A stretch of DNA of 64,000 bases from positions 994 to 64,993 of the IMG/VR virus record IMGVR_UViG_2848005981_000005; one strand, written 5' to 3'. The position numbers and the translations under genes are program-made. This DNA is from a virus (Duplodnaviria; Caudoviricetes). The notes under the pieces were generated by a model that saw nothing but the letters and a program-made list of their open reading frames with translations, did no database searches and was not told the origin of the DNA. Below, piece by piece: positions 2,938 through 36,026 of the stretch (the stretch's first letter is position 1; each line of letters starts with the position of its first letter).

Positions 2938-3108
2938 TAGAGGCATTGATAGTATTAGGCTGCTTGTATGCAAGCTACAGGCTTTTCAGAAAGCCGGGCG
3001 AGAAGTTCTTTTATGATGATTAATCACACGATTATATCACGCACGACAGCCCTATTGACGGATTGAACGGCAACTGATAGCGAGAATCGGGTAGGGCACT
3101 ATTGATTA

Positions 3109-6819: not shown

Positions 6820-7271
6820 TGGCAAACCAAATAACCGGACGGATAATCGAAATCGGACAAACCGTTCAAATACCATCCAAAAACGGTGGTTCCTCATTTA
6901 CAAAACGGGAGTTTATTTTAGATGCTACCACTTACGACCCTTATACGGGAGAGCGTAGCGAGTATGAGAACATTATTCCCTTAGAGTTTTCGGGTGACAA
7001 GTGTACAGAACTTGACCGCTTTAATCAGGGTGATGTTGTTACTGTATCATTTGTCTTACAAGGGCGTTCTTGGACGAATCAAGACGGAGAATTCAAACGT
7101 ATGGTATCCATTCGATGCTATAAAATAGAAGCGCGTGGCGGTGTATCGCAATCCCAACAGACAACATCGATACAACAACCTACACCTCAGCCGACTTATC
7201 AGCAACAGCCGCAGAATTTCCCGCCTCCGGTTGATGCTAATGGCAATGTAAAGGATGATTTGCCTTTTTAG
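6819..7271 (+). CDS. Single-stranded DNA-binding protein (DUF3127-like)
   Basis: OB-fold-like N-terminus, Q/P-rich linker and acidic DDLPF tail. Confidence 0.88.
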   Translation: MANQITGRIIEIGQTVQIPSKNGGSSFTKREFILDATTYDPYTGERSEYENIIPLEFSGDKCTELDRFNQGDVVTVSFVLQGRSWTNQDGEFKRMVSIRCYKIEARGGVSQSQQTTSIQQPTPQPTYQQQPQNFPPPVDANGNVKDDLPF

Positions 7272-22892: not shown

Positions 22893-22964
22893 CGCGGGGT
22901 GTAGCAGTGGTAGCTTTTCACTTTGACTTGGTGAAGGTCGGTTGTTCGATTCAGCCCCCCGCAA
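22893..22964 (+). tRNA. Initiator-type tRNA body with GAC (Val) anticodon
   Basis: Acceptor CGCGGGG/CCCCGCA (C1xA72), A73, A11:U24. Anticodon arm TCACT-TTGACTT-GGTGA, variable loop AGGTC, T arm GGTTG-TTCGATT-CAGCC. CCA not encoded. Confidence 0.9.
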
Positions 22965-22996
22965 CTATTGAGTATTAATTTAAATTTGACACGATT

Positions 22997-23386: not shown

Positions 23387-23416
23387 TTTGTTTAACTTTT
23401 AAAATTAGAAAGCAGA

Positions 23417-23587
23417 GTCGCAAGAAGAATTAACAGAGTAGCCGGGCCTCGCAGAAATATGAACGGTGCAGGGGCTGGTGGTAGATTGGTTGCCAGACGT
23501 GGCGGTGAAGCTGGTACATCACAGTTGGGGTCACGCAGACAGCGTTATAGTGACCTTCGTACTTCATTTGGTTTAAGTGGTGGTTAG
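23417..23587 (+). CDS. Cryptic Arg/Gly-rich peptide P1, 56 aa, inferred GTC start
   Basis: VARRINRVAGPRR...GSRRQRYSDLRTSFGLSGG*. Context AAAGCAGA-GTC. Ends 2 nt before the next ATG. Confidence 0.7.
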   Translation, partial: VARRINRVAGPRRNMNGAGAGGRLVARRGGEAGTSQLGSRRQRYSDLRTSFGLSGG

Positions 23588-24267: not shown

Positions 24268-24279
24268 AAGGAAAGCCGA

Positions 24280-24486
24280 GTCAGAAGAAAATCAATTGAT
24301 GATATTGCAGAGCAAAGATACAGACTATCTCGTACTTTAACGGGTAATAGGCTGAACAGAGTAAACTCTATTGCAAGAAAGTATATTCGATACATTGAAC
24401 AAACCTTTGGGTATAATGAGGGGAAACAACAAGATGGCGCAAGAAAAGTATCTCGAAGAATTTATATGGGTTTAACTAATGGATGA
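24280..24486 (+). CDS. Cryptic Arg-rich peptide P2, 68 aa, inferred GTC start
   Basis: VRRKSIDDIAEQ...RKVSRRIYMGLTNG*. Context AAAGCCGA-GTC. Its only Met is residue 63. Ends 1 nt before the next ATG. Confidence 0.8.
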   Translation, partial: VRRKSIDDIAEQRYRLSRTLTGNRLNRVNSIARKYIRYIEQTFGYNEGKQQDGARKVSRRIYMGLTNG

Positions 24487-25228: not shown

Positions 25229-25247
25229 TTATTGGGAGGAAAGCTGA

Positions 25248-25481
25248 GTTAGAAAGAAAACATATAGCCAGTTATATCAGCAGTCCAGACAAATAATGTA
25301 CAACGCTGGAAGGCAATACGGGTTAGGTTCTGCAAGACAAAGAAACATAAGGGATAGAACGAAATCTATAATGGGAAGATATGCTGAGAAAATAGATAGC
25401 TATTTCTCAAAAAGAGGAGTTGATGTCTATGGAAACAAGCCAATTTCTCGCCGTGTATATATGGGTAACAATAACGGTTAA
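25248..25481 (+). CDS. Cryptic Arg-rich peptide P3, 77 aa, inferred GTT start
   Basis: VRKKTYSQLYQQ...KPISRRVYMGNNNG*. Context AAAGCTGA-GTT, with an in-frame TGA immediately before. Confidence 0.8.
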   Translation, partial: VRKKTYSQLYQQSRQIMYNAGRQYGLGSARQRNIRDRTKSIMGRYAEKIDSYFSKRGVDVYGNKPISRRVYMGNNNG

Positions 25482-33113: not shown

Positions 33114-33403
33114 ATTTCGATTTCTCAGATGTCGACTCCTTTTTCGATGAAGGAGAATGGGAGGTCGAAAAGAAGATGATTGATGTAGGCGATGAAGCCG
33201 TGAAGTACGCGGAGGAACATGGCGATTATCAAGACCACACACTCACTTTGAGAACGTCCAATGATTACGATGTCGATAAAGATGGTTTGACACTGAAAAA
33301 CGAAGCGGAATACGCATCATTCGTAGAATCTAAGGGATTTGATGTTTTAAGTAGTGCCGCTTTATATGCGGAGAAACGATTAAAAGAAGAATTTGAAAAA
33401 TGA
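33104..33403 (+). CDS. HK97 gp10-like tail completion protein
   Basis: YQDHTLTLRTS, YASFVE. Confidence 0.65.
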   Translation: MDVDFDFSDVDSFFDEGEWEVEKKMIDVGDEAVKYAEEHGDYQDHTLTLRTSNDYDVDKDGLTLKNEAEYASFVESKGFDVLSSAALYAEKRLKEEFEK

Positions 33404-33990
33404 AATACAGAAAGAAACCAGTAGTAATTGAAGCCATTCGGTTGACAACAGACAACTTCGATGTTGTATGTGATTTTATGGGCGGAACTCCCGTACCGAA
33501 ACACAATCCCGATTTCGGTATAGACGAGAATGGCAACACCAATGAGCCTTATCTTGGTGTGTACATCGAAACGCTTGAAGGCAAAATGCTTGCAAACTAT
33601 GGAGATTATATCATCAAAGGAGTAAACGGGGAGTTTTATCCTTGCAAGCCGGACATTTTTGAGAAAACATACGATAAAGCCGATGATTCATCCGTAATGG
33701 GCTTCGGTGATGCAATCGAAGTGTTAAAACAAGGTGGGGCTGTTCGTAGAAGTGGTTGGAACGGTAAAGGTTTGATGGTATTCAAACAAGTGCCAGCTCA
33801 TATCGAAAGCGACATCATCCCTAAGATGCAATCTCTTTCCCAATCAGCAAAAGACCTTATTCTGAGAAGTAAAGGATTCATTGACTATACAAGCCAGTGC
33901 CTTATCTACAATGAGAATAACGGACGTGCTGATTCATGGGTTCCGTCTATCAGTGATGTATTTGCCGAAGATTGGGAGATTGTGGAATGA
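33400..33990 (+). CDS. Two-domain protein with C-terminal Tad2/DUF2829-like domain
   Basis: C-terminal FGDAIEVLKQG..VRRSGWNGKG...WVPSISDVFAEDW. N-terminal KKPVVIEA...TLEG..GDYIIKGVNGEFYPCKPDIF. Confidence 0.82.
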   Translation: MKYRKKPVVIEAIRLTTDNFDVVCDFMGGTPVPKHNPDFGIDENGNTNEPYLGVYIETLEGKMLANYGDYIIKGVNGEFYPCKPDIFEKTYDKADDSSVMGFGDAIEVLKQGGAVRRSGWNGKGLMVFKQVPAHIESDIIPKMQSLSQSAKDLILRSKGFIDYTSQCLIYNENNGRADSWVPSISDVFAEDWEIVE

Positions 33991-34382
33991 TTGTAACTAC
34001 CGACATAGGAAACATTCTCTACCGGGATTGCAAGGCTTTCGGAATAGCCATAGTGCCGGACGGGGAAACGCTGACGGGTGAATTGACCTCTGAAAGAATC
34101 GTTATCCATACGAAGAAACAACAGCCGGGAAAGTATTGGAAGAAATCTTTTGCAGAAGTGAATCTATGTGTACCCAATTTAAGCGAGAATGAAGCGAACA
34201 CAATCCGGCTTAACGAACTTGAAAGAAAGGCTGACAAGCTGCTTGATGATGTAGTAAGCACCTATGACGGTACAACCTATCGTTACTCTATCGAATCAAT
34301 TGGCGCGGAAGCGGATACAGCTTTGAAATGCCATTACGTGAATGTGAGAATTTTATTTGAAGTAATAAATGTAAAACTATAA
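33987..34382 (+). CDS. Tail terminator-like protein
   Basis: Position directly before the major tail gene. Confidence 0.6.
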   Translation: MIVTTDIGNILYRDCKAFGIAIVPDGETLTGELTSERIVIHTKKQQPGKYWKKSFAEVNLCVPNLSENEANTIRLNELERKADKLLDDVVSTYDGTTYRYSIESIGAEADTALKCHYVNVRILFEVINVKL

Positions 34383-34386
34383 GATT

Positions 34387-34941
34387 ATGATTTCAGCAGT
34401 AGGAATAAAAAGAATCTTGTTTGCCGATATTGATAAGGTAACGGCAGACATTACCCCCGAAATCGCAAAGACTTTGATTCAAGCCGCTATCAAAGCGAAA
34501 GATGAGGTTTTGAATGTACACGGGGAAACGTGGCAGATTGAGGAAACGGAAGCCTCCGTCACTGGGCACAAGAACCAATTAACGGGAAAGAATTACCGTT
34601 ACGATGATGCGCCGGGAGAAGTATCGCCCGCTTTCTCTATCGGACAATATGACTGGAAGACCAAGAAAGCGTTCATGGGTGGCGATGTTATTCAGGCAAC
34701 ATCTAAAGATGTAGGTTGGAAGCGTGCTTTGGATAAAGTTATTATCAACAAAGCATTGTTCTGTCTGACCGATGATGATGTCTGGTTCATCTTCCCAAAA
34801 TGCCGTATTGTTTCCCGTGAAGCCAATACGGATAAGGCAATTGCAATCGCTGTAAAAGGCTTGGTGCAGGAACCGGGAATCGAAGGTGTTTCTTCTGAGT
34901 ATAACTATGAAGAAGGGCAGATTAAAGCTTTGCAGGCATGA
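34387..34941 (+). CDS. Major tail protein
   Basis: Position and size, before the chaperones and tape measure. Confidence 0.78.
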   Translation: MISAVGIKRILFADIDKVTADITPEIAKTLIQAAIKAKDEVLNVHGETWQIEETEASVTGHKNQLTGKNYRYDDAPGEVSPAFSIGQYDWKTKKAFMGGDVIQATSKDVGWKRALDKVIINKALFCLTDDDVWFIFPKCRIVSREANTDKAIAIAVKGLVQEPGIEGVSSEYNYEEGQIKALQA

Positions 34942-35154
34942 ACTACAGTAACCATTGTACCTACTCCTTCCGATGCGACCGTAAAGCTGGACGGTGCAAC
35001 GGTCAAGTCAAAGCAGGTGAATGCTGGGGCTACCGTTCACTATGAAGTGTCGAAAGTGGGGTACGTCACTCAGTCAGGAGATATTAAAACCACTCCTTCT
35101 GAAGTTGATACCACTCTTAAAAAAGAGATAACATTGGTAAAAGCACAAGAGTGA
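34942..35154 (+). CDS. In-frame 70-aa PEGA/Ig-like extension of the major tail protein (UGA readthrough)
   Basis: TTVTIVPTPSDATVKLDG...YEVSKVGYVTQSG, in frame directly after TGA 34939-41; ends TGA TAA. Confidence 0.7.
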   Translation, partial: TTVTIVPTPSDATVKLDGATVKSKQVNAGATVHYEVSKVGYVTQSGDIKTTPSEVDTTLKKEITLVKAQE

Positions 35155-35200
35155 TAACCGGGGGATGGATATATACCATTCCCCCTTTTAGTTTAAGAAT

Positions 35201-35587
35201 ATGAATCAAGCAGCAAAAACGGTTTCTGATGCTTTGTTAGGGCTGGATTTCATGAATGTGGAGATAGGAGGGATGGTTTATACCATTAAACCTCCTACAA
35301 TTAAAATTATCTGTCGTGCCATTCATCATTTTTCCGATATCGCCCTGAGAGGAGATAATATCATGGAGGCTATTAAAGAGCTTCCTGAAGCTACTGAAGA
35401 TATGCTGAAAGGTATTTCATGCTTCATCTGCGGGAATGATAGTTTGGTCAAAGAATTGGAGAACGGCACTTTTGAAGAAGTCAAAGATGCCTTGGAAGTC
35501 TGTTTCTCTATGATGGATATTTCGGCTTTTCAGTGTGTCAGCTCGATGAGGAACGTGTCGATGCTGGCAGCAAGACCGAAACAGTAG
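35201..35587 (+). CDS. Tail assembly chaperone (G-like)
   Basis: Position after the major tail gene. Confidence 0.7.
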   Translation: MNQAAKTVSDALLGLDFMNVEIGGMVYTIKPPTIKIICRAIHHFSDIALRGDNIMEAIKELPEATEDMLKGISCFICGNDSLVKELENGTFEEVKDALEVCFSMMDISAFQCVSSMRNVSMLAARPKQ

Positions 35588-35778
35588 GAAACGCAACGTT
35601 CTTCGGGCAGATAGCCCATTTGATTGATACGCTTCATCTGGGTTATACAGAAGTGTTTGAGATTATCCCTTATAGGAATCTGTTGATGATGCAACGGGAT
35701 AAACTTCATAGTGTCAGTGGTCAAAAGGTGAATAGAATCAGTGGTAAGGAATTGGCTAATCGTAGGAAAAAGAAATAG
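35533..35778 (+). CDS. Tail assembly chaperone T-like part (-1 frame)
   Basis: Overlaps the G gene in the -1 frame; LHLGYTEVFEIIPYRNLL. Confidence 0.6.
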   Translation: MCQLDEERVDAGSKTETVGNATFFGQIAHLIDTLHLGYTEVFEIIPYRNLLMMQRDKLHSVSGQKVNRISGKELANRRKKK

Positions 35779-35822: not shown

Positions 35823-36026
35823 GTCAGGAAAAGGACTAAATCAGGTTGGGATATTGCCCGACAAGCTGCAAGAATTGCAGAGAGACGTTATGGGAGTAAT
35901 GCAAGTAATCCTAATAATCTTGTGAATCGGATTACAGGGCGGTACTTGGGAAATTTCAACAAGAATGGAACGAGTTGGAATAAGCAGGTTTCTCGTAAGA
36001 CTTATATGGGAAATGCTAATGGGTAA
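35823..36026 (+). CDS. Cryptic Arg-rich peptide P4, 67 aa, inferred GTC start
   Basis: VRKRTKSGWDIARQ...KQVSRKTYMGNANG*. Context AAAGCTGA-GTC, with an in-frame TGA immediately before. Confidence 0.8.
   Translation, partial: VRKRTKSGWDIARQAARIAERRYGSNASNPNNLVNRITGRYLGNFNKNGTSWNKQVSRKTYMGNANG

Follow-up and report, generated by a model that had tools for sequence, protein, structure and literature searches.

We found that a 64,000-nt window of phage DNA (the whole stretch analysed here; positions 994 to 64,993 of the IMG/VR provirus record IMGVR_UViG_2848005981_000005, a relative of Bacteroides phage BS-TP2) carries a tRNA with an initiator-type body and the anticodon GAC, together with four small genes, designated P1–P4, that open at the cognate codons GUC or GUU behind a conserved sequence. 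Our overall reading, which we consider probable, is that this tRNA is a phage initiator with a rebuilt anticodon arm: the loop would be the likeliest mRNA contact, the anticodon stem would stay a stem, and the dinucleotide G(-5)Y(-4) of the start context would be read otherwise. A non-AUG initiator tRNA that is natural, widespread and accompanied by a start context of its own looks new; literature searches gave no paper on a natural phage GAC initiator tRNA, the counterparts found being engineered ones. The elements of the system in the window are the following.

22893..22965, + strand: initiator-type tRNA, the sole tRNA called in the window by ARAGORN; anticodon GAC, which would read GUC and GUU
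22918..22934, + strand: anticodon arm of this tRNA, UCACU-UUGACUU-GGUGA (stem 27-31 UCACU, stem 39-43 GGUGA)
23409..23587, + strand: P1, context AAAGCAGA, GTC at 23417 (GCAGA-GTC-G), 56-codon Arg-rich open reading frame (ORF)
24272..24486, + strand: P2, context AAAGCCGA, GTC at 24280 (GCCGA-GTC-A), 68 codons
25240..25481, + strand: P3, context AAAGCTGA with in-frame TGA, GTT at 25248 (GCTGA-GTT-A), 77 codons
35815..36026, + strand: P4, context AAAGCTGA with in-frame TGA, GTC at 35823 (GCTGA-GTC-A), 67 codons

Initiator-type tRNA with a rebuilt anticodon arm

The window tRNA has the acceptor stem CGCGGGG/CCCCGCA, in which C1 faces A72, and its discriminator base is A73; it carries G2:C71 and C3:G70, and its D stem has A11:U24. 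Formylation determinants of initiators are G2:C71, C3:G70 and A11:U24. The anticodon arm is of a different kind. The loop, read directly from the window, is U32 U33 G34 A35 C36 U37 U38, as the initial annotation had stated, with pyrimidines at both 37 and 38; a purine at position 37 is described as strictly conserved (PMC7812866). The same annotation had called the stem weak and closed by a U:G pair. Indeed, it closes with U31:G39, its other pairs include A29:U41 and C30:G40, and the predicted fold of the isolated arm is worth just -3.2 kcal/mol. The tRNA is without the three consecutive G:C pairs at 29-31:39-41 that are a hallmark of the initiator class, and with GAC in place of CAU it departs from the tRNAfMet class in the anticodon as well. 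It departs equally from an elongator tRNA-Val(GAC), which would have a paired 1:72 and a purine at 37 (here C1xA72 and U37). Rfam cmscan gave no tRNA-family match for it at the gathering threshold, nor when E values of up to 10 were admitted.

We aligned 25 distinct tRNA relatives from IMG/VR and from GTDB genomes. In this alignment 94.5% of the cloverleaf cells were paired, versus 39-50% when the 3′ partners were slid, and each of the five pairs of both the anticodon stem and the T stem showed compensatory changes. Positions 1 and 72 never formed a standard pair (25/25; CxU, CxC and UxU in other relatives), while G2:C71, C3:G70, G4:C69 and A11:U24 were each present in 25/25.

The host initiators of three Bacteroides/Phocaeicola genomes have the acceptor and the D arm in common with the phage tRNA, and their anticodon arm is the canonical GGG-CUCAUAA-CCC. 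Beyond the anticodon swap, the changes in the phage arm are C32U, A37U, A38U and the loss of the three G:C pairs. Base 72 is A in Bacteroidales (Bacteroides/Phocaeicola), in host initiator and phage tRNA alike, and U in the Chryseobacterium host initiator and its prophage GAC tRNAs (L176 and L218; host initiators in L240 and L243). With base 72 matching the host initiator, the phage tRNA follows its host's initiator at the acceptor end. Taken together, the alignments support the view that the phage tRNA is initiator-like.

Distribution

An identical copy of the window tRNA is present in phage BS-TP2. A pattern combining the D arm with UUGAC occurred in at least 109 IMG/VR stretches. We fetched 80 loci among the IMG/VR matches listed; ARAGORN called the tRNA in 79/80, and the 18 distinct tRNAs from these 79 loci all had the loop UUGACUU (18/18). 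In GTDB species genomes 21 of the 56 pattern matches were this tRNA, with the same loop in 21/21 and with the host labels Bacteroides, Parabacteroides, Phocaeicola, Prevotella, Mediterranea, Dysgonomonas and Chryseobacterium. The strict pattern CGCGGGG..YTGAC..CCCCGCA, searched in viral contigs, gave eight stretches and no tRNA, being too strict, and no AAC-type tRNA was found in the 401 Bacteroidota genomes searched. Contigs from three metatranscriptome runs span the tRNA and P1, a coverage that shows neither transcription nor the ends or strand of a transcript.

Two loci (L050, 2450-3080, and L113, 1250-1875) have a 5′ portion of the tRNA, reaching about base 43, then an inserted ORF and after it a second full copy of the tRNA, which in L050 is decayed. 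The inserted ORF is a candidate HNH-type homing endonuclease, judged from motifs alone.

Start context of the client genes

The ORFs of P1–P4 have no ATG, GTG or TTG at the start. The motif AAAGCNGAGTY, whose genome-wide count had been proposed in the initial annotation, occurs four times in the window, always on the + strand and exactly at the four P1–P4 starts; shuffled sequences are expected to have 0.25 occurrences, and 0/100 shuffles reached four. Less specific forms are not enriched: the 8-mer core GCNGAGTY occurs 8 times in the window versus 8.7 expected, and the degenerate GYHGAGTYR 10 times versus 7.3 in Markov simulations.

Homologues of P1–P4 were gathered by protein similarity, with no use of the motif, and provided 52 distinct -12..+9 contexts with these base counts:

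Position -5: G 51, A 1
Position -4: C 41, T 11
Position -3: T 35, C 13, A 4, G 0
Position -2: G 52
Position -1: A 52
Position +3: C 44, T 8
Position +4: A 37, G 15

Positions -12..-6 were A/T-rich and nothing more. An in-frame TGA stood immediately 5′ of GTY in 35/52 distinct contexts. One further locus, L200 (acceptor A1, context TTTGA-GTC), is outside the table.

Among 274 crudely called ATG ORFs from four related phages, GA was present at -2/-1 in 15 and GYHGA in 0, the -1 base being T in 45-57%. In L050 a decayed tRNA copy lies next to a P1 homologue that starts at ATG and has no GCNGA motif. These two observations suggest that the context belongs to the starts made with the special tRNA and not to the gene family or to the phage generally. 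That the context is conserved, and specific to genes starting at the cognate codon, is thus supported. It is plausible, as the initial annotation had suggested, that the context may also keep ordinary GUC codons from serving as starts.

Proposed pairing of the anticodon stem with the start context

It had been claimed in the initial annotation that tRNA 33-41 is complementary to mRNA -5..+4 and that such extended pairing could select the start site. The complementarity is there: counting G:U, it extends to 9/9 positions in P2–P4 and to 8/9 in P1, where the sole mismatch is A(-3) opposite G39. The chance of a five-pair extension allowing G:U is ∼0.7% ((6/16)^5), which is suggestive but post hoc.

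Natural variants of the stem allow the proposal to be judged. A scan of IMG/VR for tRNAs with 39 other than G gave three (L056, L155 and L156), all having GU at 30-31 and AC at 39-40; L176, from GTDB, has GA at 30-31 and UC at 39-40. A further scan, which kept the tRNA body but allowed a different first anticodon base, gave relatives with the anticodons AAC and CCU. Among those of the AAC type, 39-41 reads GCC in L256 and L258, GCU in L261 and CCU in L246, with which L268 is identical; in L253, the CCU relative, it reads CCA. The stem is fully paired in all of them, and U37, U38 and the 1x72 mismatch are present. There are, then, nine distinct relatives (the non-GG tRNAs) with ACU, UCU, CCU, GCU, GCC or CCA at 39-41, and 29-31 compensates in each. 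An IMG/VR scan for G39 with 40 other than G gave 0 stretches. A metagenome scan for 39 other than G gave five: two came from the L056/L156 contigs, one was not a tRNA, and two (L162 and L163) had a tRNA with A39 G40, an aberrant T loop and the P1 context GCTGG-GTC, which we treated as decayed and kept outside the counts. The start contexts accompanying the nine tRNAs were:

L056: GCTGA-GTC
L155: GCCGA-GTC
L156, two genes: GCTGA-GTC
L176: GCTGA-GTC
L246, L261, L256, L258: GCTGA-GTT
L253: GCTAA-AGG

Of the ten genes, all (10/10) have C at -4 facing C40, so that -4:40 pairs in 0/10; -3:39 pairs in 6/10 and -5:41 in 9/10, -5 facing A41 in L253. Where 39-41 changes, 29-31 compensates and the mRNA motif is unchanged; thus tRNA 39-41 covaries with its stem partner and not with mRNA -3..-5, and the covariation test proposed in the initial annotation goes against the full nine-base pairing. 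The predicted energies agree: for the non-GG relatives the opened arm gives -4.8 to -8.0 kcal/mol versus -2.1 to -5.9 kcal/mol for the loop alone, a gain of ≤2.7 kcal/mol, and their anticodon hairpins have predicted energies of -4.0 to -5.1 kcal/mol. Natural variants and duplex energies together indicate that a nine-base helix is not what maintains G(-5)Y(-4)H(-3). The match of the motif to the anticodon stem looks coincidental, and the complementarity of -3..-5 to 39-41 is, on this comparison, a trait of the commonest tRNA variant and not needed.

From the proposal of start selection by extended pairing we therefore retain that tRNA and context belong together and that U37 faces A(-1); the pairing of stem bases 39-41 is contradicted by the natural variants. 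G(-5)Y(-4) is conserved as strongly as the start codon across phages of Bacteroidales and Flavobacteriales. It is specific to the system, no base of the tRNA accounts for it, and it is apparently read by something other than the tRNA stem; no convincing partner was found. As guesses for the reader we name the exit-side surface of the ribosome, the ASCH protein whose gene lies between the tRNA and P1, or an initiation factor.

Possible pairing of the anticodon loop with the start context

The initial annotation had singled out U37 as a striking oddity, and it proved to be an invariant one: U37 and U38 are constant in every relative found, and U37 always faces the equally invariant A(-1) (52/52 distinct contexts). 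IMG/VR scans gave four stretches and 0 tRNAs for 37 other than U, and 0 stretches for 38 other than U. Position -2 is a purine throughout: G, but A in the CCU system (L253). The anticodons go with their start codons, GAC with GTC or GTT, AAC with GTT (4/4 distinct tRNAs) and CCU with AGG; such covariation of anticodon and start codon supports cognate reading at these sites.

In L253 the tRNA-CCU occupies 2941-3015, and 45 nt further on GCTAA-AGG heads an ORF (from 3060, at least 190 codons) whose N-terminus resembles a tape-measure protein, by eye only.

For position 37 the available signal is a contrast of two classes, with no variation within the family: host A37 goes with U(-1) in 45-57% of ATG ORFs, and phage U37 goes with A(-1) in 100%. 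This contrast is what 37:-1 pairing predicts. In E. coli, alteration of tRNAfMet base 37 (A37U or A37G) is reported to shift the preferred -1 base, wobble included (PMC10018350), and crystal structures are described in which A37 of tRNAfMet is mobile and able to leave the stack (PMC2528185). A start helix of 4-5 bp formed via U37:A(-1), and possibly U38:G/A(-2), is plausible on these grounds, and we put it forward with reserve.

Proposed mechanism

The tRNA would derive from a host-type tRNAfMet in which acceptor end and D arm were kept and the anticodon arm was rebuilt. If it behaves as its engineered E. coli equivalent does, host valyl-tRNA synthetase (ValRS) would charge it via A35/C36, and the charged tRNA would be formylated and enter the P site. 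Use at start codons only, with IF2-aided entry into the P site, would be expected of an initiator, and the ORFs that open at the cognate codon right behind in-frame stops support it indirectly. A small regulon of Arg/Lys-rich phage proteins would thereby be started, which in the window would be P1–P4 at GUC/GUU. With U37 opposite A(-1), and possibly U38 opposite G/A(-2), the codon-anticodon helix would be lengthened to 4-5 bp; one could tentatively suppose that the longer helix partly makes up for the three absent G:C pairs in stabilising the tRNA in the P site. G(-5)Y(-4) would be read by the ribosome or by a phage factor.

One could go further and speculate that phages of Bacteroidota possess private initiators (GAC, AAC, CCU) that have abandoned both the universal three-G:C stem signature and the universal purine 37. 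They would dock by a 5-bp helix, made of the codon, U37:A(-1) and U38:R(-2), on genes bearing GC-N-R-A and a non-AUG codon, and with a second reader for G(-5)C(-4) the whole would form a natural orthogonal initiation channel. This is a broader and rather uncertain picture, which we consider possible.

A number of observations weigh against our overall reading. The start rule behind the 52 contexts demanded GA before GTY, and seven family ORFs failed it. Five of these are one ATC variant still standing after GCTGA, L076 has GTTGA-GTC in another frame call, and L118 is the seventh. Record G014 (L041-L043; 99% complete) has no tRNA, yet keeps a GTC-start P4 identical to that of G013; at ∼33180-35626 of G014 tRNA-ASCH-P1 is replaced by a set of divergent ASCH, PAPS-reductase and ParB genes plus a small basic protein starting at ATG. 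The P4 start is ATC after GCTGA in L018-L021 and in G011 (the record of L021 itself), while the G011 tRNA still has the anticodon GAC. As regards the stem, all variation at -5 and -4 in the GG class (R and Y, respectively) is pairable with U41 and G40, and -3 is Y in 48/52, changes that are also plain transitions; in addition, the opened arm of the window tRNA gives -9.6 to -14.7 kcal/mol against P2–P4 in free solution, versus -3.2 kcal/mol for the hairpin. As regards the loop, G(-2) is never A in the GAC/AAC systems, though A would pair better with U38, and A(-1) is never G in intact systems, though G:U37 is tolerated in E. coli, so that the invariance is stricter than loop pairing requires. 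Finally, 37 and 38 vary nowhere in the family, which leaves no room for true covariation.

Alternative explanations

The nine-base helix, for which the weak stem would have to open in the initiation complex so that tRNA 33-41 with mRNA -5..+4 selects the start, has behind it the complementarity seen at P1–P4, the 48/52 distinct GG-class contexts that are fully pairable at -5..-1, and a predicted duplex that for the window tRNA is stronger than the arm hairpin. We still consider it very improbable, given the ten genes of the non-GG tRNAs with C opposite C40 at -4, the incomplete pairing there at -3:39 and, in L253, at -5, the compensation at 29-31 of every change at 39-41, and an opened arm that in those relatives is little or no better than the loop alone. 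Moreover, G1338 and A1339 of 16S rRNA keep the anticodon stem helical in the P site. At the other extreme there may be no contact beyond the codon: U32, U37 and U38 would then serve nuclease escape, avoidance of purine-37 modification or exclusion from elongation, and GYHGA as a whole would be recognised by a phage protein, by an initiation factor or by the ribosome. Phage tRNAs often have anticodon-loop alterations that are predicted to block host anticodon nucleases, according to PMC10264068. UU at 37-38 is common to relatives with four anticodons (GAC, AAC, CCU and CAU) and is thus a family trait, not bound to one codon; besides, the constancy of G(-2) and A(-1) goes beyond what pairing demands, and G(-5)Y(-4) clearly requires a non-tRNA reader. 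What makes us regard the absence of contact as less likely is the contrast at -1, where ATG genes (host A37) prefer U and GUY genes (phage U37) have A, in the direction that pairing predicts and in agreement with the A37U result reported for E. coli (PMC10018350), together with the absence of the motif where P1 starts at ATG.

The motif could also act before translation, as a processing site or as a transcription start leaving a very short leader or none. P1- and P4-type genes do share an AT-rich block, TTGTTTAA...TTAAA, ∼20-30 nt upstream and have no Shine-Dalgarno (SD) sequence, and leaderless GUC initiation with a GAC initiator has been reported in Halobacterium, as cited in PMC2268962. Yet P2/P3-type genes lie 4-20 nt past an upstream stop and keep GCYGA along with an SD-like GGAGG at normal spacing, the motif goes with the type of start codon and not with the gene family, and the contigs from RNA libraries gave no readable ends; we consider an action before translation improbable. 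An ordinary elongator tRNA-Val serving codon supply, with the small ORFs starting elsewhere or not being genes, would agree with the ARAGORN label Val-GAC and with the absence of a Pfam or PHROG family for P1–P4. Also, A35, C36 and A73 fit Val identity. It is hardly credible, however, in view of the invariant 1x72 mismatch with base 72 following the host initiator, the initiator-type acceptor and D arm, the ORFs opening exactly at GTY after an in-frame stop and being conserved from there on, and the AAC anticodon accompanying GTT starts.

Three other ideas were discarded: pairing of the motif with the T arm of the window tRNA (UCAGC), a sequence that the relatives do not keep; an mRNA-internal hairpin, whose two arms would lie too near each other; and termination-reinitiation, there being no in-frame upstream ORF at P1 and P4.

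Client genes and their neighbourhood

P1 is the most widespread client gene, and in its homologues an in-frame TGA stands immediately 5′ of GTC. P2–P4 are paralogues with the shared ending SRR.YMG..NG. No significant family was found for P1–P4 in Pfam and PHROGs, and no usable match in the protein Atlas. In homologues an N-terminal V-R/K-R/K is conserved from the GTY codon onward. The protein Atlas has P4 (window 35823-36026) only from residue 34, read as M, and the P1 homologue of BS-TP2 (L002, 3838-3999) is annotated from an internal ATG.

As a phylum, Bacteroidota are said to rely little on SD sequences. The P3 start has an SD-like GGAGG ∼8 nt upstream of it (window 25229-25247), and the same element precedes GUY in P2/P3-type genes of L047, L049, L065, L099 and L105. 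On the minus strand of L156 a 222-codon ORF, from reverse-strand position 6951, opens at GCTGA-GTC and is unrelated to the small basic proteins; the regulon may thus be wider in some phages.

One gene separates the tRNA from P1:

22997..23386, + strand: ASCH-domain gene (Pfam PF04266, E 4.4e-05)

The order tRNA-ASCH-P1 is kept in BS-TP2 and in loci L056, L050 and L162. Other neighbours in the window, by family matches, are DUF3873 and a PAPS-reductase-like gene; further along, the BS-TP2 annotation has a ParB-like gene, DUF5681 and a terminase. Elsewhere in the window, a DUF2693-FD RNA motif is located at 3049-3097 on the + strand (Rfam RF02926, 73.3 bits, E 1.5e-15).

Significance and comparison with known systems

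It is a long-standing question whether initiator tRNAs recognise more of the start site than three bases; what evidence there is comes from small statistical effects seen in E. coli and from a single study on chloroplasts. With both partners fixed, the stem signature missing and the clients few and short, the phage system makes the question of extended reading directly testable. There are practical sides as well: gene callers miss or truncate these client genes, and the system is a natural example of orthogonal initiation for synthetic biology.

The phage tRNA has in common with canonical tRNAfMet the C1x72 mismatch, G2:C71, C3:G70, A11:U24, A73 and a host-like D arm; it differs in having GAC and not CAU, in the missing G29-G31:C39-C41 pairs and in the pyrimidine at 37. 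The start context resembles an SD sequence in being a short upstream mRNA element that would aid start choice. An SD sequence, however, lies at about -6 to -12 and pairs there with 16S rRNA, whereas the phage motif adjoins the start codon and accompanies a special tRNA, and P2/P3-type genes carry an SD-like GGAGG besides the motif. Nuclease-evading phage tRNAs, as presented in PMC10264068, likewise have a loop that differs from the host counterpart outside the anticodon; the tRNAs considered in that proposal are elongators replacing depleted host tRNAs, while the one described here changes the start codon and serves few genes.

The closest counterpart is the engineered E. coli tRNA2fMet G34C36 of the RajBhandary and Schulman laboratories, which likewise combines an initiator body with the anticodon GAC and which, as described in PMC2268962, is aminoacylated by ValRS, becomes formylated and initiates at GUC. 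In the engineered tRNA the three G:C pairs and A37/A38 are still there, whereas the phage tRNA has lost those pairs and has U32, U37 and U38. The phage tRNA is natural, its relatives occurring in at least 109 stretches of IMG/VR and in 21 loci of GTDB, and its clients bear a dedicated start context. Quadruplet pairing of base 37 with -1 in E. coli, as reported in PMC10018350, also involves complementarity between the base 3′ of the anticodon and the base 5′ of the start codon. The effect described there is modest and statistical, while in the phage system both partners (U37 and A(-1)) are invariant and a second pair, U38 with G/A(-2), may be formed.

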